A DNA stretch of 64,000 nucleotides, taken from Octopus vulgaris. Its lineage: Eukaryota. Numbering within the stretch: the stretch's first letter is position 1; each line of letters begins with the position of its first letter. This document shows positions 6,004-62,849 of the stretch, in pieces. Position numbers and translations under genes: made by a program. Below the pieces are notes generated by a model. The model had not been told where the DNA came from, searched no databases, and saw only the letters and a program-made list of their open reading frames with translations. Location of the stretch: contig OX597831.1 in NCBI GenBank assembly GCA_951406725.2, forward strand, positions 36,952,001-37,016,000, written 5' to 3'.

Positions 6004-6739
6004 CAGGGCTGTCTTAACTATATTATTGGCCCCTGGACACATCAATGCTCTGCTCACTGTAGTATTTATTGAGTTGTCTGGAAAGTTCGTGCCGATTTTT
6101 AAAGGAAAGAAAAAGGTCAATAAATACTTGCAATTACATCTTTAATCAACCAAATATGAACCATTTTGTTGGACAATGCATCTCCATCTTTACTTTAACT
6201 TGAAAATATCCTCTTCCCAGAATTGAGGTAGTTTCATGGCAAAGAATTCATTAAGGTATCTTCTACATCATCCAAGGAATTGAAATTTTTACCATTAAGA
6301 CTATTCTGCACAGACCTGAATAAGTGGAAATCCAAAGGAGCAATATCTGGTGAATATGTAGGGTGGGGTAACATATCTCAGCTGAACTGCAGCAATTTTT
6401 TCTGGTTCCCAAAGCATCAAATACCGAAAAGGAACTTTCTAATCTTCCATTTTAAAGGGTTACAGAATTAACACAGGTTATAGGAACATAAAACTACTTC
6501 CACAAAAAAGTAGCTGAAACTGTGCTCTAAATGGAGGTGTAGTCAAATCCTGTTTTCTGGACTCAACCATGTTCTAAAATAAGCCGAAATGTAAGCTACT
6601 ATAAATTGGCACAAACTTTCTGGACAACCCAATATTCATTGCCAGCATGTCACAACATACATAGATCATAACTGGGCTCCTAGACCCTTGAGGCCCCTGG
6701 GCAATAGACCAATGTGCCCATGGCCCTATGACAGCACTG
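6004..6739. mobile_element. hAT-like MITE carrying a nested mariner derivative
   Basis: Termini CAGGGCTGTCTTA / TATGACAGCACTG; 8-bp flanks ccaggacc / tcaagacc (6 of 8 match). Confidence 0.55.
6069..6632 (-). mobile_element. Internally deleted mariner (non-autonomous)
   Basis: TA-flanked TIRs ttgagttgtctggaaagttcgtgccgattt / aaattggcacaaactttctggacaacccaa; homologous over its full length to 57461-58026. Confidence 0.85.
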
Positions 6740-7171
6740 TCAAGACCTCACAATACAATGTGATCCTTCTTTTGCTTTAAATGACAGGGTATGATTTGAG
6801 AGATACTTGGCTTTAATTTCTGGTAATCTTTTTTCAAGCACAGAAGTTATTTCTGTACTTATGAGAGGACTTAGTTGCAGACACTAATGCAAGGTAACAC
6901 AAAGTATGTTCAAACCTGAAACAATGTGGTCACAAGCTTAATTCCCTTACCACACAGCCATAGAGCTATTCCTCTAACCAAAAATACATTCTTTATCATC
7001 TTATGTTTAAAGATCAAGCCTGCATTAGTGGGTTAGCTTCCAGAAGGACAATAACAGCAACAGTAAGAACAACCATCATAAGGCAGTTCTGTATTTAAGA
7101 GATGAGGAATTATGTACATTATTTACATTATTTACATTCAACGGGTATTTGTCCTCATCTTGTTTGTTGTT

Positions 7172-7217
7172 AACACAACATTTCAGCTGATATACCCTCC
7201 AGCCTTCATCAGGTGTC
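7172..7217 (-). ncRNA. Minimal type-I hammerhead ribozyme
   Basis: gacac-CTGATGA-a-ggctg..cagct-GAAAT-GT-T-gtgtt; stem I gacac/gtgtt, stem II 5 bp. Confidence 0.65.
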
Positions 7218-7451
7218 TTGGGGAAATTTTGAACCTGGGTTCTCATTCCTAAGGAATTTTTCGATGTTATTATTATTATTATTATTCAGGTCACTGCCTG
7301 GAATCAAACTTGGAATCTTGGGTTTAGTATCCTGTGCTCTTAACCACTATGTCATATGCCCGTGGACATGTGGCAAAGTGGTTAAGAGCACGGGATACTA
7401 ACCCCAAGTTCTTGAGTTTAATTCCAAGCAGTGACCTAAATAATAATAATA

Positions 7452-7521
<70 letters not shown>

Positions 7522-7607
7522 GAAGAAGAAGAAGAAGAATCATAATAATAATAATAACATTGAAAAAATACCTTAGGATTGAAAACCCAGGTTCGAAATT
7601 TTCCCAA

Positions 7608-7653
7608 GACACCTGATGAAGGATGGAGGATATATCATCTGAAATGTCGTATA
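7608..7653 (+). ncRNA. Minimal type-I hammerhead ribozyme
   Basis: gacac-CTGATGA-a-ggatg..catct-GAAAT-GT-C-gtat; stem II has a compensatory C-G to A-T change relative to the other copies. Confidence 0.6.
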
Positions 7654-7819
7654 AACAACAAACGAGATGAGGACAAATATCCGTCAAATGTAAATAACGT
7701 AAATAGTGAGCTATCATAAGGATCAAAATGTTAATAACAGTTGATATCATGTCCTTGAGTCTTTCTTTGTTCCAACCACCACTTGACAACCTGTGTTGGT
7801 GTGTTTATATCCCTGTAAC

Positions 7820-11689: not shown

Positions 11690-11821
11690 CACCTGATGAA
11701 GACTGGAGAGTACATCAGCCGAAACGTTGTGCTAACAACAAACAAGATGAGGACAAATATCCATCAGATATAAATAATGCAAATGATGTACATAATTCTT
11801 CATCTCTTAAATATAGAACTG
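11690..11821 (+). mobile_element. 5'-truncated hammerhead-SINE copy starting at the ribozyme
   Basis: cac-CTGATGA-agactg..cagcc-GAAAC-GT-T-gtg (11690-11731), then the family tail to ..catctcttaaatatagaactg. Confidence 0.8.
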
Positions 11822-16750: not shown

Positions 16751-17986
16751 TTGGATCATCCCATAAATAATGTGGTTATTTCAACTGAATGAATAAAAGT
16801 CAGAGGGGGACAGGATAAACTACCTGTGTAGTAATATTATCTTGTACAAATTTTGAAGAGTGCAGTTCGGTTTTAACAGTTATTTTTTCAAAGTTATAAT
16901 GGAAGTAACAAAGGAGCATATTCAGCATATTTTGCTTTATGAGTTCAATAAAGGCAACGATGCAATGGAAAGTGCAAGGAATATTAATGCAATATATGGG
17001 GGTCGGACAATAAGCATAAGCTACTGTCTGTGGTGGTTCCAGAAATTCTGAGCCGAAAACTACAGTTTAGAAGGTGAGCCTCATCCTGGAAGATCTGCAG
17101 AGCTCGAAGAGCATGGCCTGCAAATCCTGGTGGAAAAAAAAAATCCCATGGTAACTGTTGAGGAACTAGCAGAGAAGCTTGGATTTGGTCATTCAACCAT
17201 TCATCGACACATGCTTGCCGTGAGAAAAGTTAGCAACTTGGGTCAATGGGTTCTTCACAAACTTTTTGAGTTTAATTGTGCACAGAGAGTGAATGTGTGC
17301 TCTTCTTTGCTGTTATTCCTCCCGAATGAACCTTTTTTGGACTGAATAGTGACTGGTGGTGAGAAATGGGTTCTCTATAAAAATGTCAAGTGCTGCAGAC
17401 AGTGGGTAGGAAAAGGAGAAAAACTTGCACCCCAGGCTAAAGAAGGTCTTCACCTATGTAAATTGTTGTTATCTGTTTGGTGGGATATGAAAGGTTTAGT
17501 CCACTTTGAACTCTTAAACACAAATCAAATGATAACAGAGGAGATCTACTGTGAGCAGCTTGAGCAGCATAAGTGCTACAAGAAAAATGACCATCTTTGG
17601 TTTCAGGACGAATGGTGTTCTTCCATCATGATAATGCTTGCCCACATGCAACAAGGATGACATTCCAAAGGCTGGAGCAGTTTGAATGGGAAATGGTGCT
17701 CCACCCACCATATTTACCGGACATTGTCCCATCTGTTTATCATATATTTTGCAGTCTACAAAATCCTTTGGACGGAAAAAAACATGAATTCTATATATGA
17801 GGTCAGAACTGTAGTGGAGGAGTATTTTTCATCAGATACAAGTGAATTTTGGAAGATGGTCCTTGCAAGTCTACCAGATAGATGGAAGAGCATCGTAGAA
17901 AATGAAGGAGGAGGGTATATTTCAGATTTATCTTAATTTTGAAAAATAAAAGAAGTATAAAAACACCACATTATTTATGGGATGTC

Positions 17987-19925: not shown

Positions 19926-20021
19926 CCGGAGTAAACACATAAATGTGAAACAAGGTGGAAAAAAGAGTACTCAAATACCAGTGGTAGAGTAATATGCTTT
20001 ATTTTAAGCAGCAGAAAATTC

Positions 20022-20075
20022 AACAAAATCTGTTACTCTGAGTTTCTCGTTGCCGTTCATCAGACAGTTTTTGTT
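20022..20075 (-). ncRNA. Minimal type-I hammerhead ribozyme (mirror copy)
   Basis: Reverse complement of 22788-22840, with one extra A in stem I. Confidence 0.75.
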
Positions 20076-21075
20076 AGAATGGAACTTATATATTAATTCA
20101 ATCTATACTCTTACAAACGCTACACCTTTAAAAAGAAATGGACTTGTTTGATTGGCCCTTTAGAAAAAACGGTCAATCTTCGAGCGATAAACAAAAAGGT
20201 CAAAAATATATGTATATATATATAAAAAAACTTATAAAAATTATAAAATCCGAGGAAAAAACCGAGGAAAAAACCTATTGCCGTTAATGAAGACAGTACA
20301 AATTAATGCATAGAAATTAAACCTGTTATAAATACTGCAATACATATTTATATTAAAATCCACATATATATATCAACATACACAAAAGGATGCGCGTAAA
20401 CGCCATACATACATATACAGACGTATGAATATGAATCTAAATTATACACATAAAAGCATGTGTACATATATTCACGCAAACCGTCTCGCACGCAAGCTAA
20501 AATTCATCTATGTAGCAATTCTCATATACTGAGCAAGGAGGGGGAACGAAAGAAAGGGAAAGAGAGAAAAAGGAACGAAGGAGGGGTGGGGAAAAAACTT
20601 GTAGCGATATTATTGGCATCTATAGAGGCCAGTATACATACACAGGTTTGAATTGATACATATACATACCGTCGTGTGTATGCGTGCTTAAGCACAAGCA
20701 TACTTTCACTTACACATACACAGATACGCATGCTTACAAATACATATGCTTTGCTATACACAAACTTATATAAACATTCCAAATTTGACAACATTGCTTT
20801 TTTTAAAAAAACATTGCTTTTAAAAAATGGGTGCATTAATAAAAATATATACGAAAGACATATAAAATAAAATATAACATCCTATTTTGGGTCATTTATA
20901 AATAATCAAGGTAATATAAATAATCAAGGTAATCTTATGCAATACAATAACATGAAAACAAAGTTTGTAGGTTTTTCCTAATATATATGTAGAAACAATA
21001 AGACTTTGCTATAGGTCCGTCGTAGCGCTCAAGAGTCAAAATCAAAATCAAAAATCAAAATACAAAATATATACT

Positions 21076-21431
21076 CTATCCATATGGTATATTTATATTC
21101 GACATTTTAAATTTAGCCGCGTGCCTACATAAGTTCATTAACTCACTTCTTTGATTCAAAGAATTATTGTCTTTGAATAATATGTGCATTTTCTCTAATA
21201 AGCAAAGCCTGCACTTGAAATTATATTTGTAAGCTCCATGCCTGTATGGTGCCGCCCTGTCCAGAATGCTCCATGTCACGTTGAAAGGTGGGGCTTCCTT
21301 TTCTTTTAGTTCCCAGACATATTTTGCTAGGCTGGTTTTCTTCCTATTCTCTGGGTATTTAAAAGAATTCTTATGAGAATAAAATCTTGTTTTAAATGAA
21401 TTTTCTGAAGCCCCTGTGTATGTCTTGTATT
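21076..21431 (-). pseudogene. PLE GIY-YIG endonuclease C-terminal fragment (mirror copy)
   Basis: Reverse complement of 21434-21789. Confidence 0.88.
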
Positions 21432-21789
21432 GGAATACAAGACATACACAGGGGCTTCAGAAAATTCATTTAAAACAAGATTTTATTCTCATAAGAATTC
21501 TTTTAAATACCCAGAGAATAGGAAGAAAACCAGCCTAGCAAAATATGTCTGGGAACTAAAAGAAAAGGAAGCCCCACCTTTCAACGTGACATGGAGCATT
21601 CTGGACAGGGCGGCACCATACAGGCATGGAGCTTACAAATATAATTTCAAGTGCAGGCTTTGCTTATTAGAGAAAATGCACATATTATTCAAAGACAATA
21701 ATTCTTTGAATCAAAGAAGTGAGTTAATGAACTTATGTAGGCACGCGGCTAAATTTAAAATGTCGAATATAAATATACCATATGGATAG
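21430..21789 (+). pseudogene. PLE GIY-YIG endonuclease C-terminal fragment (open frame, 5'-truncated)
   Basis: YTG (YIG motif), FKTRFYSHKNSF, TSLAKYVWELK, WSIL..APY, CRLCLLEK, LNQRSEL..CRH. The GIY half and RT are lost at the palindrome axis. Confidence 0.9.
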
Positions 21790-22787
21790 AGTATATATTT
21801 TGTATTTTGATTTTTGATTTTGATTTTGACTCTTGAGCGCTACGACGGACCTATAGCAAAGTCTTATTGTTTCTACATATATATTAGGAAAAACCTACAA
21901 ACTTTGTTTTCATGTTATTGTATTGCATAAGATTACCTTGATTATTTATATTACCTTGATTATTTATAAATGACCCAAAATAGGATGTTATATTTTATTT
22001 TATATGTCTTTCGTATATATTTTTATTAATGCACCCATTTTTTAAAAGCAATGTTTTTTTAAAAAAAGCAATGTTGTCAAATTTGGAATGTTTATATAAG
22101 TTTGTGTATAGCAAAGCATATGTATTTGTAAGCATGCGTATCTGTGTATGTGTAAGTGAAAGTATGCTTGTGCTTAAGCACGCATACACACGACGGTATG
22201 TATATGTATCAATTCAAACTTGTGTATGTATACTGGCCTCTATAGATGCCAATAATATCGCTACAAGTTTTTTCCCCACCCCTCCTTCGTTCCTTTTTCT
22301 CTCTTTCCCTTTCTTTCGTTCCCCCTCCTTGCTCAGTATATGAGAATTGCTACATAGATGAATTTTAGCTTGCGTGCGAGACGGTTTGCGTGAATATATG
22401 TACACATGCTTTTATGTGTATAATTTAGATTCATATTCATACGTCTGTATATGTATGTATGGCGTTTACGCGCATCCTTTTGTGTATGTTGATATATATA
22501 TGTGGATTTTAATATAAATATGTATTGCAGTATTTATAACAGGTTTAATTTCTATGCATTAATTTGTACTGTCTTCATTAACGGCAATAGGTTTTTTCCT
22601 CGGTTTTTTCATCGGATTTTATAATTTTTATGTTTTTTTATATATATATACATATATTTTTGACCTTTTTGTTTATCGCTCGAAGATTGACCGTTTTTTC
22701 TAAAGGGCCAATCAAACAAGTCCATTTCTTTTTAAAGGTGTAGCGTTTGTAAGAGTATAGATTGAATTAATATATAAGTTCCATTCT

Positions 22788-22840
22788 AACAAAACTGTCT
22801 GATGAACGGCAACGAGAAACTCAGAGTAACAGATTTTGTT
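22788..22840 (+). ncRNA. Minimal type-I hammerhead ribozyme in the PLE terminal repeat
   Basis: aacaaaactgt-CTGATGA-a-cg-gcaa-cg-a-GAAAC-tcaga-GTA-acagattttgtt. Predicted cleavage after 22828; AATAAA follows about 30 nt later. Confidence 0.78.
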
Positions 22841-22869
22841 GAATTTTCTGCTGCTTAAAATAAAGTATA

Positions 22870-32067: not shown

Positions 32068-32371
32068 AATGCCCATGGGCATATGGTGTAGTGGTTAAGA
32101 GTGCAGGTCACTAACTCCAAGATTCCGACTTCAATTCCAAGCAGTGACATGAATAATAATGATAATAATACTCTTTACTTGTTTCAGTCATTTGGCTGCA
32201 GCCATGCTGGAGCACCGCCTTTTAGTCGAGCAAATTGACACCAGGACTTATTCTTTGTGAGCCTAGTACTTATTCTATCAGTCTATTTTGCCGAACCGCT
32301 AGGTTATGGGAACATAAACACACCACCATTGGTTGTCAAGCGATGTTGGGGGGACAAAAACAGACACACAA

Positions 32372-32408
<37 letters not shown>

Positions 32409-32733
32409 CATATATACGACGGGCTTTCTTCAGTTTCCAGCTACCAAATCCACTCACAAGGCTTTGGTCAGCCTGAGGCTATAATAGAAGACACTTGCCA
32501 AGGTGCCACGCAGTGGGACTGAACTCGGAACCGTGTGGTTGGTAAGTCACACAGCCACTCCTGTGCCTAATAATAATAATAGCATCAAAAAATACCTTAG
32601 GAATGGGAACCCAGGTTCAAAATTTCCCCAAGACACTTAATGAAGGCTGGAGTGTATATCAGCCGAAACATTGTGTTAACAACAAACAAGATGAGGAGAA
32701 ATATCTGTCAAATGTGATAATGTAAATAACGTA
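32068..32733 (+). mobile_element. Hammerhead-SINE copy interrupted by a CORE-like SINE (32170-32568, minus strand)
   Basis: Head atgcccatgggcatatggtgtagtggttaagag; decayed core TTAATGA..ggctg/cagcc-GAAAC-ATT-gtgtt at about 32632-32677. Confidence 0.8.
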
Positions 32734-33124: not shown

Positions 33125-35974
33125 GAAAGTGTGTGTGTGTGTGTGTGTATGTGTGAGTGTTTATGTATATTTTAATTTAATTTGTGCCGGTGTATTTTCC
33201 GTTTTAGTCCTGCTAACTGAGAAAATACATTTAAATTAATGCTTCACTATGAAATTTGTTAATATAGTTTAGAAAACAAGCAATAAATAAATAAATGAGA
33301 AGAAAAAGCCTTACAGAAACCCCCCCCCCCCAAAAAAAAAAAAAATACTTCAGAAAAGGAAAAAAAAAAAACCTACAAATAAAAGAAGAAAGACACAGCA
33401 GATAACAACAATACATAATTGAATGTAGAATATGGTTTTTGAGAAGGTAATAATGCTTGCAAATAATTGCTACTTTAACATTTATAGCTTTTTCAAACAT
33501 CTTGTCAAACATTCCAACTTCCATATTATAGCATGTAGTTCTTTTTTTGTTTCTTTATTTTGTAGCTTATTGTTTATCTGTTCTTCTTCATCATATTTGT
33601 TGCCATCAAGGCGGCTTAACTGGTACAGATGCCAACTTGATGTATAGGATAATAATTTACTGCCAGAGCCAACCCGGCCTTCAATACTTCATTCATATTC
33701 ATATTCATGCCAGTTTTGTTGTTGTTGTTGCTGTTGTTGCTGTTCTTGTTTAGCCCTTGGTGAACTATGGTCGAGCTGACCCTATGATTAAAGGCTTTTC
33801 AAATTTTGATCATAGGGCAAACGAAGTCTTTTGGGATCTGATTATTTCTTCAGACAGCATATCGCGGAATAAATAATCTTTGATTTTGAATAGAATAAGA
33901 TGTGAATAGGAGAGTAATTTTGCTGCTTAGTTTAGCAGGAAAAGTAACTATGTGATGACTATCCTGTTGGCACATCATATAGAAGATAGTTAAATTTATG
34001 GATTTGCAGTTATTTAGCAAAAAAATTGATTTGTAGGTGTCAGTGTTAAAACTAATAAATAAATATGATAAATGATTAAGTGCAAACCTGGATAACCCAG
34101 AGTTCAAATAAGAACTTACCCACACTCTTTGTTCTGTTTTGACATACTTTGTGTCTTGGTATAGCAGCAATTTGAACCCCAACCACAAGGTATTCAGTTA
34201 GAGATCACAAATGAGCCACCACATTTTCACGTGATTGATCAACTAAACTGCACGAAACTGTGGCATAATATGGCCCCCTCGGATGATCTAATATTTGCCC
34301 CCTTTTCACCCTATAGGAACAGATTGGTGCCAAACTCAAGCAGACTGCTAAGACAGATGATTTCAGGCCTTCGTGCAAACATCCTTGAATACTCACCGAA
34401 GGCAGACTTCTAAGACCCGACCACTTCGAGCAAGAAACAATTTCAGTCACTCACACACGATGAACCACAACTAGCCTTCTATAGGCATATTACTGTTCTC
34501 TCCACCCTGGGGACGCTTATATTATCAGCATCTTTCTTTTGTAATGCAGTAAATCATGTCCAACAATGAATATGTTAAAAGTTAAAAGATCGTAAGTTGC
34601 TTGTTTTATTACTATACACACAGCTAACTAGACTACACGACGATATTCTTCAACAAACACACACCAACAAGCAAACCCTGCGACGTCGGTGAGAAAGCAA
34701 TATAGTCATAGTTTCTTGGGTAACCGCTATAAAACTGCATCATCACTACATTTGTTTATTTCCAGCTTCTCTCCTACAACGTCAATAACCGTGTAAGTCC
34801 TCTCCTCCCTTCTACAATTTGAGCAGCCGTATAGCTCCTCTACAACAAGAAACGGTTTCTGGTGCCTTCTTTCATACATTAACCACTCAGTCGAAGAGGA
34901 TCTTCGTCTTGTAAGCTGCATGGTGACCTCACTAGTGGTAGCACCACAAGGGAAAGAAAAACGAAAGAAACTAAAACGCACACAGTATATGCTGTAAAGC
35001 GTTTGGTGTTAGGAAGGGCATCCCGCACTAAACCTGCACAGAAACAAGTTAAAGCAGACACAGTCTTCGTCCCCGCCGGATACTGTCAAACCTTCCAACT
35101 CATGCCGGCATGAAGCATAAATGTTAAATGATGATGGTTATATATATATTTTATATTGACAGTGAAAGGTTTTATGTGGAGTTCGACCTTTTCACGTATC
35201 CAAATGATATTTTAAACCAAATTTTGAACAGGTGTGTGTGTGTGTCAGTGTGTGTGTGTGTGTGGGCACGTATGCATATTTGTATTGTGTAAGTGAAACT
35301 TTAATTACGTATGTTGACAAAGGATATAAATATCATGAAGTAAACAGAAAGGAAATGATGTTCTTCGAATGTGTAGCGAAGATTCGAAATCGAATCCCTG
35401 GATACGCGGTCAGACATCACGAATAAACTACAATTGTTTCACGTGATCGGTTTATTAAGCAACCGATCAGCTTCAAGCCATTGCGTAATTCAATCTTCCA
35501 GAATCTTCTGGTCTCCTATAAAAAGACGCGACACTTTTGGCAGTAATTAATTATAGAATGTTGGAGAAACTGAGCGTTATGTGTCCGTTCTTCTCACACT
35601 ATATTAGGCGCATTTCTAACAGCGAGACGACCCAGGCGGCTTAGACTGATGGCGAAGATAAATGACAAGAACATCCGTTGCTACGAACGTAGCATAATTG
35701 TTTCCAGTTTTGTTGGGTATGTTACATGTTGCTTTATCAATAGCTAACCTTAAACTCTAAGCAGTATCTCACTCTCATATGTATTATTGCTGTTGTAATC
35801 TGTAAAATGTCAATGCAGTTGTCTTTATGTACTATAACAAAATCTGTTAGATGTTCGCATGTGTTGATTAGTTACTTCTACACGCAGCCCAAGAAACATA
35901 TTTCCATTCATCGACTCAACCAGCTGCCACACCAGCCAGCAACAAAAAACAGCAGCCTAGAATTGCAACAAACA

Positions 35975-36515
35975 GCACCCTAATAGCAGCTGGCAAGATT
36001 TTGACGGTGATTTGGATGCCGGGCCATTGTAACCTCCGCGGCAATGAACTTGCAGATATGCAGGCGAAACGTGGCTCGGCGCTGCCACAACCGGATGCCG
36101 CCATCGATACAACCATTCGTCAGGCGGTTATTCGTCGAACGTTCCAACCAGCGTCAATTCAACATCCCCCTCCGAAGGAAGTCTTCACAAAGAAACCTGA
36201 TAAAAAAACCGAAGCAGCCCTCTTGAAGGCAGACTTCAAAGACATGATACGCTTCCGTAGTGGTCATCATCCGGCACTCAGGCAGTGGCAAAAGATGGCA
36301 GGACGCAGCGACACAGACCAATGCAGACTCTGTAACGAGGAGGTGGAATCTGCAGAACATCTCTGGCTGAGATGTCCGGCCCTGATGATGGAACGCTATA
36401 TCCGCCAGCTAGGGGCTACAATGGATGAGATGATTCGTCTCCCTTCCGCGGCTCTAGCACTTCTGAGAGTTATCCTCAGACGCTTGAGGTGACCACCACC
36501 ACCACCACCACCACC

Positions 36516-52025: not shown

Positions 52026-52734
52026 AATCCTCCTTTCGCTATCACTTTTGTTCGCCAAGATAGATAAACTACCACAAACAATAAGATATAAAATACAAAA
52101 ATAACCATCAATCTATATACACAGAGAAAGAATAATTATTTTCCAAGACAGTGAAACCAATTATAAATAAACAGAATTTGGAGGAAACGTAAATGTATTT
52201 TCATTTTGAGACTTCTGTCGTCTAGATTCGTAACTAAACTGTCTGTTGGTTTCGAAAGTTAACATTTACAAAGGCAATTCTTTAATAATGAATGGTTTTA
52301 AGATTATTATCTTGCCGAGGAATGTCTGCTGTCTGTGGTGCTACGCTAAAATTGCTAGAATTGATTCTTGCAATTTAATCTGAGAGATCCGGGGTTCGTG
52401 GTTTGAATCAGGTTTATTTTTATTTTTGATTTTTGCGTAATAAATTGCAAGAATTAATAATAATACTTTGTGAGTGTTTGTCACAAGGCCAGCAACTATT
52501 AGGGGTTATGGGATCGATTACATTGACCCCTGTGTTGAAGTTGTACTTATTTTATCGAGCCCGAAAGAATGAAAGGCAAAATCGACCTCGGGAGGATTTG
52601 AACTCAAAACGTAAAGCCAAAAGAGATGGTGCCTAGTACCGAGACAGGCGTCTTATCGGTTCTGTCAGCTCACTGCCCTAAATGAAAGATGAATAATTTT
52701 AGCATTTCAATATCGAAACATTTAAAGATACTCT

Positions 52735-52983
52735 GTTATTTACATTATTTACAATTGACGGATATTTGTCCCCATCTTGTTTGTTGTTAACACAACATTC
52801 CGGCTGATATACACGCCAACCTTCATCAGGTGTCTTGGGGAAATTTCGAACCTGGGTTCTCATTCCTAAAATATTTTTCGACGTTTTTATTATAATTCAG
52901 TTACAGCCTGGAATCGAACTCGGAATCTTGGGGTTAGTAGTCCGCACTCTTAACCACTACGCCATATGTCCATGGGCGTATTC
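52735..52983 (-). mobile_element. Hammerhead-SINE copy with intact Pol III boxes
   Basis: Minus strand: A box TGGCGTAGTGG, B box GAGTTCGATTCC; hammerhead 52789-52834 gacac-CTGATGA-aggttg..cagcc-GGAAT-GT-T-gtgtt. Confidence 0.82.
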
Positions 52984-53007
52984 TGTTATTCTTAGTCTAC
53001 TTTAATA

Positions 53008-53083
53008 CAGCAGTACCTCGGTTTTCGAACAACTATGGTCTCGAATAAATCGTGCTTTATATATATACATATACACACACACA

Positions 53084-56960: not shown

Positions 56961-57460
56961 GGTGTATTCGTTTACATCGTTTCACGTATTTCTTCACTTA
57001 TGTCTCTACTTTAGCGTATTCCTTTATTTCCATTGTTCTTGCGCTTAAGGTTCGTTATTTCTCCTATATATGTATCAATTCAACGGATTGATAAGTTGTT
57101 AAAATGAATGTAAGCAAAGGAAAGTAATTCCAACTTCACCACGCCCTTATGCTTGTAGGTTTATTTCTCTATAAAAATTCAAACCTGTACATTTTTTTAA
57201 TGCACCTGTGTTTGTATTGTTTATTATATGCAAGAACGCACTTATGCGTTAGCATATTCATTTGGAATAAAATATATTTCGCTGTATTTCTTTTGTGTGC
57301 TTGCCAAGTCAATGAACCAGCTATTGACACGCATTTTCATAAACAAAAGAAAGCCATTCTAACATCATTTTACCACGCATGGGCACAATATATTCATGCA
57401 GTAAAAGTATTATATTATATAAGACCACAAAAGTCTCAAAACAACTACTGGAACCTAATA

Positions 57461-58026
57461 TTGGGTTGTCCGGAAAGTTCGTGCCGATTTATAGTAGCTT
57501 ACATTTCGACTTATTTTAAAACATAGTTGAGTCCATAAAATAGAATTTGACTACACCTCCATTTAAAGCACAGTCTAAGCTATCTTTTCGTGGAAGAAGG
57601 TTTATGTTCTTATAACCTGTGTTAATTCTGTAACACTTTAAAATAGAAGATAAGAAAGTTCATTTTCGGCACTTGATGCTTTGGGAACCAGACAAAAATT
57701 GCTGCAGCTTGGCTGGGATGTATTACCTCACCCTCCATATTCACCAGATATTGCTCCTTCGGATTTCCACTTAATCAGGTTTCTGCAGAATAGTCTTTAA
57801 GGTAAAAATTTCAATTCCTTGGATGACGTAAAAACATACCTTAATGAATTCTTTGCCATGAAACAACCTCAAATCTGGGAAGAGGGTATTTTCAAGTTTA
57901 AGGAAGGATGGAGACGCATTGTGCAACAAAATGGTTCATATTTGGTTGATTAAAAATGTAATGGCAAGTATTTATTAACATTTTTCTTTCCTTTAAAAAT
58001 CGGCACGAACTTTCCGGACAACCCAA
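57461..58026 (+). mobile_element. Internally deleted mariner (non-autonomous, 566 bp)
   Basis: Perfect TIRs ttgggttgtccggaaagttcgtgccgattt; residual LPHPPYSPDIAPSDFHL. Confidence 0.92.
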
Positions 58027-59790
58027 TGCATAGATATGAAAAGATGCAAACACCTGAGGAGGGAAAATGGAGCCTTTGAATATTGAAAGTAGAATGGCAA
58101 TTTAGTGGAAACTAAAATTGTCCAAATCGTTATTCCATGTTTCTCGTTACCGAGATACCTGGATTTTTATGGGAATGGAACCTAAAATTTCGTTTACAAT
58201 CATACAAAATGATAGTTGATTCATATAGAGTTATAAAAGCAATATTATTAGATAGTGGCATAGGAGTTAATTGAAAAATAGTGGTGACACATAAAGTGAT
58301 AGATGCAAGAAGAAATTGTACAAAGAATGTAAACATCATCAGTACATCCGTGTATATATATGAGAAAAACAAATTCGAAACTTTGCGTTCGTGAAAAATC
58401 AAATATTAGCCGTGCAAAGAAAAAAAGAACTTGTTGCCTTTAAGTGTCTTTAAGTGTCTGCAAATATAGATATAATATGTAAATGTTATGTCATTCCAAT
58501 TTTTGCGAATTTTGTTGCTTCAGGTAACCATTTAGAGGCATATAATTGCGCAGTAATAAATAACTTCGAAATGTATTTACAAAAACTTAACATTTCCAGG
58601 CGTTTATTCGAAACGTTGTCACATCCAATATCAATTATCTATTTAAAAAGAGCTTACAATATATATGTGAATGGAAGCTATCCCGTACGCAGAGAACAGC
58701 ATGACCGAAAATAAACTATTAAATTCCAAATGTCAGACATCCTGTTTCTTTAAAAAAACCGGCGAATGTTTAAGGGAGACTTTCTTTCAAGTTTATTGAA
58801 TATATGAATATATTAATATATATTCGTAAAAAAGAAATTTAATGTAATTCCCTATAGGACTGATACAATTACGGGATTGCTATTACTGGATTAAATTTTA
58901 GTTTAATAGATGAGTGCTTTCAAAGACAACTACTTTTAGAAGCCCAATTAGTTGGGACAATATGACAATAGCAAAGCTCCAGAAATTCTATTGGTCAGAC
59001 CGGAAATATATTAAAGTTCGTTTTCTCATAATATTCACAGATTTAAGAAAATCCGAAAGAAAATTTGGCACAGACCTCTCTAAATATATATGGTTTATAA
59101 AAGAATCAAGGTGACAACGGATTAAATGAATGCTTAAAAATATTAGCATTCTGTAGTCACAGATCGAAGTTTTTATTTTGTAGTTAAATACCTCCATACG
59201 TCTGATATAAGCAGCAATATTCATAAGTATTTTTACGCTTAATATCTCTAATTTCAAATGCAGATGAGGTAAAATAACTACTCTGATTTATAAGCTTCCG
59301 CCAATATATACATACATACATACATACATGCATACATACATACATACATACATACATACATACATACATACATACATACATACATACATACATACATACA
59401 TACATACATACATACGTACATACATACATATATGCATACATGCTTACACATATACATATCAAAAAAATTAACAAAAACAGAAAAAACGGAAAATTTTACA
59501 AAAACATAACAGAAAATTTGTAGCTTATTCGTCATCAGTCAATGCCCAAAAGATCATTACAATTTCGCGGTTTTAATGTTGATATTGTTCACTTTTGGAG
59601 GCGCCAGTGGCGAAAAGCCACTAGGAATAGCTAAAGAATGTACAGGACAATGACAAAATCAGACACGGCAAAATAAAACATACGATGTTTATATGATATA
59701 TATGATATAATATATATATATATGTCAGTAGTTCTCTTATCTGAAAACAGAAGCACACTCTAAATCGTTAAAGCAGTAATACATTTTTTG

Positions 59791-62094: not shown

Positions 62095-62768
62095 AATTAA
62101 AATCACAATAAGGGTGAAAAAAATTGAATATTAATTAATAACATCAATTTAAAACACCAAGTGGCCTAGCTTAAGAAAACTGTGATACAGTAAAAATTAT
62201 TAATACAAGTAATAAGAGAGAGACCACATGTGGTCACTCTAACGCTAGAAATAGATCCGCAAAGAGAATCCACCACTAAAGAATTGTTCTCGGGCATTAA
62301 TTCAACACACCAAGAATGTAAGCGGACAGGACAAATGAAAAATAACGAAAAAATAGATTAACTCTATACAATTGTTTCATCGTTAATAGATTGTGTAATT
62401 TTACTTACATAATCATTTTCGAATCCTCAGTAGAGTATATCAAAAATATAATTTGCTGAACCGAACGCCAAAATCCATTCGAAGCCGAGCAAAGGCGAAC
62501 GGCACAGCCGATTATATTTGCAGTTACGTTCAAATATCCTAATTGAGGATTCGAAAATGATTATGTAAGTAAAATGACACAATCTATTTACGATGAAACA
62601 ATTGTATTGAGTTAATCTATTTTTTCGTTATTTTTCATTTGTCCTGCCCGCTTACATTCTTGGCGTGTTGAATTAATGCTTGAGAACAATTCTTTAGTAG
62701 TGGATTCTCTTTGCGGATCTATTTCTAGCGTTAGAGTGACCACACGTGGTCTCTCTCTTATTACTTGT
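62095..62768. mobile_element. Fold-back insertion, PLE terminal-repeat-like
   Basis: Arms 62205-62430 and 62543-62768 are highly similar; spacer about 110 bp; left extension about 110 bp. Confidence 0.88.
62361..62436 (-). ncRNA. Type-I hammerhead ribozyme with long stem II
   Basis: actcta-CTGAGGA-ttcg..(gattatgtaa/ttacacaatc)..cgat-GAAAC-aatt-GTA-tagagt: perfect 6-bp stem I, palindromic stem III ACAATTGT. Confidence 0.72.
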
Positions 62769-62849
62769 GTGTATATATATATATACATATATATAAATAC
62801 ATACATATACACACACATACATACATACATGTATATATATATATATACA

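Follow-up and report, generated by a model that had tools for sequence, protein, structure and literature searches.

The Penelope-like elements (PLEs) that carry an endonuclease are the closest described system to the element analysed here, a tRNA-headed short interspersed element (SINE) in a 64,000-nucleotide stretch of Octopus vulgaris DNA (GenBank assembly GCA_951406725.2, contig OX597831.1, positions 36,952,001 to 37,016,000 of the forward strand; hereafter the window, numbered from its first letter). According to the sections of PMC3846280 cited here, PLE units carry an inverted pseudo-long terminal repeat (pLTR), 8–10 bp duplications and, optionally, a 31-bp tail on one arm. Palindromes of 18 and 38 bp stand at the 5' ends of rotifer pLTRs; self-priming was proposed for them, and the choice between antisense self-priming and a sense template is left undecided there. 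The same inversion pattern with a one-sided extension is reported in the cited part of PMC8557442, which calls the mechanism undefined. Minimal hammerhead ribozymes resembling the tail described below occur in metazoan PLEs, as excerpted from PMC4209133. As far as these accounts go (PMC3846280, PMC8557442, PMC11167929), endonuclease-bearing PLEs share with the octopus element a 3' hammerhead, an optional 30–40 nt extension at one end, head-to-head copies, 5' palindromes and duplications, whereas the octopus element has no open reading frame (ORF), measures about 250–280 bp, and has a head of RNA polymerase III (Pol III) type with an axis at a fixed distance from the A box in every head examined.

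Other known elements resemble it in part. Sm-alpha and Sj-alpha of Schistosoma, as summarised in the passages used of PMC6765202 and PMC8490949, combine a Pol III-type promoter and a type I hammerhead in a short non-coding retroposon, but are ribozyme-processed tandem repeats whose single copies lose the promoter; the octopus copies occur dispersed, have retained a promoter on the 5' side of the ribozyme and include head-to-head dimers. Non-LTR (long terminal repeat) retrozymes, MRC1 and other PLE derivatives (PMC7229834; bioRxiv 10.64898/2026.07.22.740005; PMC8557442) are likewise non-coding, with a PLE-related end and a proposed use of PLE proteins in trans; unlike the octopus element, retrozymes form tandem arrays and circular RNAs, and the descriptions compared mention neither a tRNA head nor a 5' palindrome. 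The octopus tRNA-derived SINE OR1 (named in PMC4824008) shares the tRNA-type head and the high copy number; by the description used, OR1 is a CORE-SINE. Within these sources, 5' palindromes, inversions and self-priming in PLEs, hammerhead SINE-like elements in schistosomes, and retrozymes as proposed PLE derivatives are therefore already known; what is new is their combination in a dispersed Pol III SINE, which has real test value. A dispersed tRNA-headed SINE with a PLE tail, an extension and a fixed fold-back axis was not found in the literature searched, which was mostly open-access. Octopus tRNA-derived SINEs including OK and OR2 were reportedly described by Ohshima and Okada in 1994, and the present family may already be named there or in Repbase.

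A search of the window with two copies identified five units of this repeat family in four insertions (copies 1–4; Table 1). From 5' to 3', a unit consists of a tRNA-type head, an (AAT)n tract, a tail of ~150 nt with a predicted minimal type I hammerhead and an optional 35-nt end extension; the whole is about 250–280 bp long and contains no ORF. Short, non-coding, dispersed and high in copy number, with target duplications, the element has the properties of a SINE. Convincing target duplications were present at two of the four insertions (copies 2 and 3), and none was found at copies 1 and 4. On balance, we consider it moderately probable that this is a tRNA-headed SINE with a Penelope-type tail, likely copied by a PLE reverse transcriptase (RT); the SINE transcript likely starts within a short inherited 5' palindrome, and its finished cDNA would occasionally fold back at the same axis and prime a second, inverted copy.

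The palindrome is located at the 5' end of the head. Three 14-mers that an earlier sequence-only reading had listed as fold-backs were all present as written, and they share one axis (32075/32076 in copy 1, 52972/52973 in copy 2 and 7362/7363 in copy 3), each at the same distance from the A box. These insertions are independent, as claimed, since their flanks are unrelated and separate target duplications accompany copies 2 and 3. The inverted part had been put at about 7 bp in two copies. This was correct for copy 1, where seven of seven positions pair and pairing then stops, and too long for copy 2, which pairs at 5/7 (7/9) and into whose arm the duplication at 52979–52990 intrudes, leaving 5 bp clear of it. 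Copy 3, described as preceded by a whole inverted element, does present a whole unit on each side, except that its second arm lacks the 35-nt extension. Among window 14-mers of at least 50% GC, 1.1% form at least five of seven pairs and 0.04% form all seven. The three sites are homologous and therefore count as a single feature, inherited or recurrent, and not as three coincidences. The unrelated tRNA-headed SINE family D18 served as a control: eight of its 14 matches reach near the head, the best pairing being 4–5 of 7 in six of them and 7/7 in two, both within TA-repeat flank, and no head-derived palindrome was seen in any of the eight.

The position of the palindrome was compared with that of the promoter. 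The A box of each of the four heads begins 9 nt downstream of the axis, and a gap of 33 nt separates it from the B box, within the 30–40 bp of an internal type 2 Pol III promoter; the boxes carry 0–1 (A) and 1–2 (B) mismatches to the consensus as quoted from PMC7279448. The heads differ from one another at 12–19 of 76–77 positions. The same source places box A normally at about +12 to +22. With box A at +12, the expected Pol III start would thus lie 3 nt into the palindrome arm. The nearest purines would put box A at +10 (the purine adjoining the axis) or +14 (a 5-bp arm). In copy 2 the target duplication sets the element boundary at the G that precedes the A box by 13 nt, or 1 nt farther out, which fits the +14 purine and supports the second choice. 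A different account starts transcription at the axis purine, so that the palindrome is not in the RNA, and has the PLE RT turn back afresh at nearly every full-length insertion, leaving an arm of 3 to several hundred bases. The axis purine gives a box A at +10, as near +12 as the +14 that we prefer; yet this route would require priming without base pairs while keeping a constant 2-nt spacer in most copies, and the truncated copy 4 has no arm.

Further evidence was obtained from contigs and RNA reads, for which copy 2 served as the reference in four of 24 runs (two contig sets and two raw RNA runs of one study). A total of 32642 and 12643 contigs and of 8182 and 6840 RNA reads aligned to it, showing that the family is very large; head and tail are joined in many records, and the element is therefore a family and not a one-off fusion. 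Loose alignment ends accumulate at 52968, a private change of copy 2 (164, 126, 339 and 264 records in the four runs), and across the axis their plurality consensus reads GGG in contigs and GGGCA in each RNA run, after which it is heterogeneous. Relative to 52960, depth at 52972 was 0.53 and 0.48 in RNA and 0.27 and 0.32 in contigs; at 52978 it was 0.18–0.20 in RNA and ~0.04 in contigs, with the arm letter carried by 98–100% of the records counted there. We infer that about half of the head-reaching RNA reads carry an arm of at least 3 nt and about a fifth one of at least 9 nt, on the assumption, consistent with the binned depths, that the depth table excludes ~3 nt where alignments end; the 9-bp class may be overstated owing to AT-rich targets and a few strongly expressed loci, and the RNA reads may be locus-dominated, so that both the assumption and these biases count against our interpretation. 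The built-in terminal palindrome proposed by the sequence-only reading is supported by an arm that is family-wide in DNA contigs and RNA reads and by an A-box spacing that puts the expected start inside it.

The palindrome centre was informative about the origin of the arm. G at 52972 accounts for 58% and 70% of contig depth, and a C at 52973, which would match it, is missing both from the 40 best-supported differences listed (163 further ones exist) and from the loose-end plurality. The centre thus looks asymmetric, copies 1 and 2 fit CpG decay of an asymmetric centre, and in copy 3, a single case, its polarity matches the extension-bearing arm. Given this asymmetry, the short arm is most likely the element's own 5' leader and not an extension product; it is probably a frozen ancestral fold-back. 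Both the fixed register and the asymmetric conserved centre look inherited, which speaks against a fresh turn-around at each insertion. In its favour, arm support declines gradually with no single sharp position, a PLE elsewhere in the window also has a palindrome with a 2-nt unpaired spacer, and an RNA loose end at 52812 is inverted with a 5-nt spacer and without a built-in palindrome. Overall, we regard this account as rather improbable. A G-to-A change common to the heads of copy 2 and of the copy 3 right arm was also considered as an inherited arm asymmetry and was rejected, ~93–100% of records having the other letter at 52969.

Long arms are a separate matter from the short ones. Snap-back of finished cDNA with variable extension, as had been suggested, is needed only for the long arms; arms of 5–9 bp are explained equally well by the element's own 5' end or by alternative starts; the self-priming idea itself is in print for PLEs, in the part of PMC3846280 cited above. 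Copy 3 is a head-to-head inverted copy inside one target duplication, the only such case among the four insertions. Its exact 9-bp duplication brackets both arms, and the dimer is therefore one insertion event, of which the left arm was likely the first strand. An assembly artefact was ruled out by the 16% divergence of the arms and the bracketing duplication. The arms differ at 36/225 aligned positions and share five derived letters, against 0–3 for the other pairs of the four units, a weak signal; this comparison does not separate one template from two.

A two-template route also fits copy 3. In this scheme, a PLE protein dimer primes on both target strands with two RNAs, and the palindromic cDNA ends anneal and are filled in. 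In the portion of PMC11167929 cited, the Anolis PLE protein, a predicted dimer with two initiation sites, cleaves and extends both strands in vitro, and the arms of copy 3 end at the two 3' ends known in the family and differ at 16% of sites. The shared derived letters, the highest number among all pairs, speak weakly for a common template. Published PLE inversions are often extended at one end only, according to the passage cited of PMC8557442, a bias that free template pairing would not favour, and one template would account for the arms of the window's PLE, which are 99.7% identical. We judge priming by two RNAs to be improbable.

The palindromic master dimer with divergent Pol III promoters that the sequence-only reading offered as its second option fared poorly. 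Here a dimeric source would be copied from a read-through transcript, and variable 5' truncation of the second arm would produce the range of arm lengths. One dimer does exist (copy 3), family sequence occurs in RNA on both strands, and PLEs can carry unrelated sequence in trans, as noted in the cited part of PMC3846280. Promoters facing outward, on the other hand, would not transcribe the whole dimer; arms pile up at 3–9 nt, at the expected Pol III start, and not along the whole element; copy 3 shows no common source-locus flank, and its target duplications abut the arms. These points make a dimeric source highly improbable. Inversion at the DNA level, either by hairpin-primed replication or repair after insertion or as part of a DNA-type mini-transposon, is very improbable. 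In principle, a large palindrome can grow from a short one; against this, a single 9-bp duplication brackets the whole dimer with no flank duplicated, while the hammerhead, the occurrence of 5' truncation and the existence of two defined 3' ends point to retrotransposition.

The tail was analysed for its ribozyme and its 3' ends. Both core boxes are present in the predicted hammerhead; its stem I measures 5 bp, stem II measures 6 bp and contains a bulged base, and stem III is a palindromic stub. These features give a minimal type I hammerhead near the 3' end as in PLEs. Across five copies, 51/55 stem cells pair (92.7%), against 20–55% for slid partners; five related sequences are no real covariation test. 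A strict descriptor finds only the left arm of copy 3, and gives three matches in 20 shuffled windows. The remaining copies have decayed; where copy 2 departs from the core, the majority letters of the family restore it (52800, 99.6% in run X1). Units end ~58 or 93 nt beyond the predicted ribozyme cut. The 35-nt extension that makes the difference is present in two of the five units (copy 4 and the copy 3 left arm) and also in loose ends at 52736, and it reproduces the optional 30–40 nt extension on one end of inverted PLE pairs. In the in vitro data taken from PMC11167929, the Anolis PLE starts reverse transcription 111–118 nt into the ORF and its ribozyme cuts at 26 nt; the two sites are therefore 85–92 nt apart, close to the 93 nt found here. 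The short 3' end finishes in AATAA (52736–52740, 32725–32729), the letters with which the copy 2 target duplication opens, and the first five nucleotides of the duplicate at 52729–52740, read on the element strand, overlap the element 3' end, hinting at microhomology or an AT-rich cut preference. Three features, namely the hammerhead, an extension confined to one side and a target duplication enclosing both arms of the dimer, together support PLE-type mobilisation.

Retrozyme traits were looked for as well. There were no head-to-tail tandem units among the four insertions in the window, and for circular RNA we found no pile-up at the cut and no back-joint among the joints listed (15 of 111). 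The head pattern gave no hits in viral or metagenome contigs. Matches to the tail pattern (no viral, six metagenome and three prokaryote loci) were discarded as chance, the match being restricted to a 20–23 nt motif.

The window also holds a 5'-truncated PLE of another family. Its arms, 1.4 kb each, are identical at 1435/1439 positions, and an extension of ~70 nt is found on one arm only. The ORF matches five proteins of 248–727 aa (E 5e-20 to 2e-16); one of the four scanned among them has sub-threshold RVT_1 and GIY-YIG matches, and an Atlas cluster scoring 0.92 for the ORF has GIY-YIG on 15% of its members. Its end is unlike the SINE tail, and it is therefore an analogue and not the partner. 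The element (19926–22865) is young and lies between TA microsatellites, and a hammerhead-like core was seen by eye at ~22795–22832 that the descriptor did not find.

Several observations weigh against the reading that we prefer. For the head, no tRNA was detected by Rfam at gathering level or by a default ARAGORN call; relaxed ARAGORN settings call one of four heads, and also nine of 200 shuffles. At E-value level Rfam returned only generic hairpin and snoRNA-type matches, far below the cut-off. The two RNA runs aligned to copy 2 showed neither a start or end pile-up nor strand bias. The cDNA hairpin is predicted to be weak (-1.4 to -3.3 kcal/mol). For the tail, Rfam gave no hammerhead match at gathering level, and no partner PLE with the same tail was found, that of the window having a different end. 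For the dimers, the short 3' end seen in monomers is also where the second arm of copy 3 stops, a point that plain snap-back by itself does not explain, and the two arms of this copy are no more alike than unrelated copies. Long dimers are represented by one of three heads in the window, and no fold-back joint at the head axis was seen among the joints listed (15 of 111), so that long dimers may be uncommon or under-detected; the palindrome scan of the window overlooked copy 3, whose arms are mismatched close to the axis, and cannot serve as a count of all inversions. Three opposite-strand joints among those listed are off-axis (52786-52968, 52791-52945 and 52880-52979), and at 52812 the loose end in RNA (255 and 197 reads) repeats hammerhead stem II in inverted orientation across a 5-nt spacer. 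Off-axis inversions therefore exist. The 52812 inversion is not in the contig consensus at that site, and this end may come from a truncated copy with an off-axis inversion at one locus or be a library artefact.

In the mechanism that we prefer, Pol III would begin at a purine lying a few nucleotides beyond the axis; the G located 13 nt ahead of the A box is the simplest choice. The tail would be bound by a PLE protein, which would start reverse transcription at one of two sites, 58 or 93 nt beyond the predicted cut, and the cDNA would be copied to the RNA 5' end, so that the finished molecule ends in a small hairpin. Most cDNAs would be joined to the target unchanged, their arms of 5–9 bp representing the 5' leader. 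In a minority, the 3' end of the cDNA would snap back and be extended, yielding head-to-head dimers. Such a palindrome would perpetuate itself, every copy placing an arm where Pol III starts. A more specific version, plausible though held tentatively, is that a very high-copy Pol III SINE captured the Penelope machinery and brings along a primer that renews itself, that the hairpin is a frozen fold-back junction transcribed by Pol III, and that the dimers reflect snap-back on a sense template and not the antisense self-priming suggested in 2013. The palindrome itself is real and family-wide, and what is already known of PLEs, applied to a Pol III RNA whose 5' end is fixed, explains most of it.

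Given the fact that the origin of the inverted PLE ends is stated to be unresolved in the text cited from PMC8557442, this SINE offers a natural test. As a Pol III SINE it has known template polarity, a fixed 5' end and very many copies, which allows the length of the arms, their axis and their mutual identity to be tallied together. An RNA of 280 nt would be easy to use in the in vitro PLE system that already exists. Confirmation would add PLEs to the SINE partners with direct insertion hallmarks, and the dimers would give long double-stranded RNA when read through.

Table 1. Coordinates of the SINE copies and associated features in the window.
Feature	Position	Strand	Details
Copy 1 terminal palindrome	32069..32082		7-bp arms, axis 32075/32076
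Copy 1 tRNA-type head	32076..32150	+	A box 32084-32094, B-box-like motif 32128-32138
Copy 1 tail, short 3' form	32582..32729	+	decayed hammerhead 32632-32677, two core changes; no convincing target duplication
Copy 2 whole monomer	52736..52977	-	5-bp arm 52973-52977, head, short (AAT)n, tail, hammerhead 52789-52834, short 3' form
Copy 2 target duplication, 5' copy	52979..52990	-	11/12 identical to 52729-52740
Copy 3 left arm, whole element	7084..7362	-	hammerhead 7172-7217, 35-nt extension 7084-7118
Copy 3 right arm, whole element	7363..7708	+	expanded (AAT)n, hammerhead 7608-7653, short 3' form
Copy 3 target duplication	7075..7083	+	exact 9 bp; second copy 7713-7721; brackets whole dimer
Copy 4, 5'-truncated tail alone	11690..11821	+	hammerhead and 35-nt extension, no inverted arm
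Unrelated tRNA-headed SINE (family D18), not part of the element	32170..32569	-	nested in copy 1 (AAT)n tract
5'-truncated Penelope-like element of another family, head-to-head palindrome	19926..22865		axis 21432/21433, 2-nt spacer

The nested D18 copy was inserted later than copy 1, as shown by its location inside the (AAT)n tract; D18 is the commoner tRNA-headed SINE of the window, with at least nine copies. In the interval 52700–53020, A>G and T>C places numbered 37/37 and 38/46 in the RNA runs (X23, X24), against 11/8 and 11/7 in the DNA contigs. This excess may be A-to-I editing of double-stranded SINE RNA, with copy divergence or dominant loci as the alternative.

Other repeats were also observed in the window. 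At 62198–62775, terminal inverted repeats of 232 bp, 95% complementary, flank a 114-nt spacer and look like a miniature DNA transposon; considered as a comparable fold-back, this repeat was set aside as a different kind of element in view of its spacer. A LINE-type (long interspersed element) RNase H and zinc-finger fragment is located at 35872–36492 (weak Pfam matches) and a mariner-type transposase fragment at 17346–17660 (Pfam Transposase_1, E 3e-19). Two long copies of another repeat, 88–92% alike and in opposite orientation, occupy 6063–6645 and 57448–58032.
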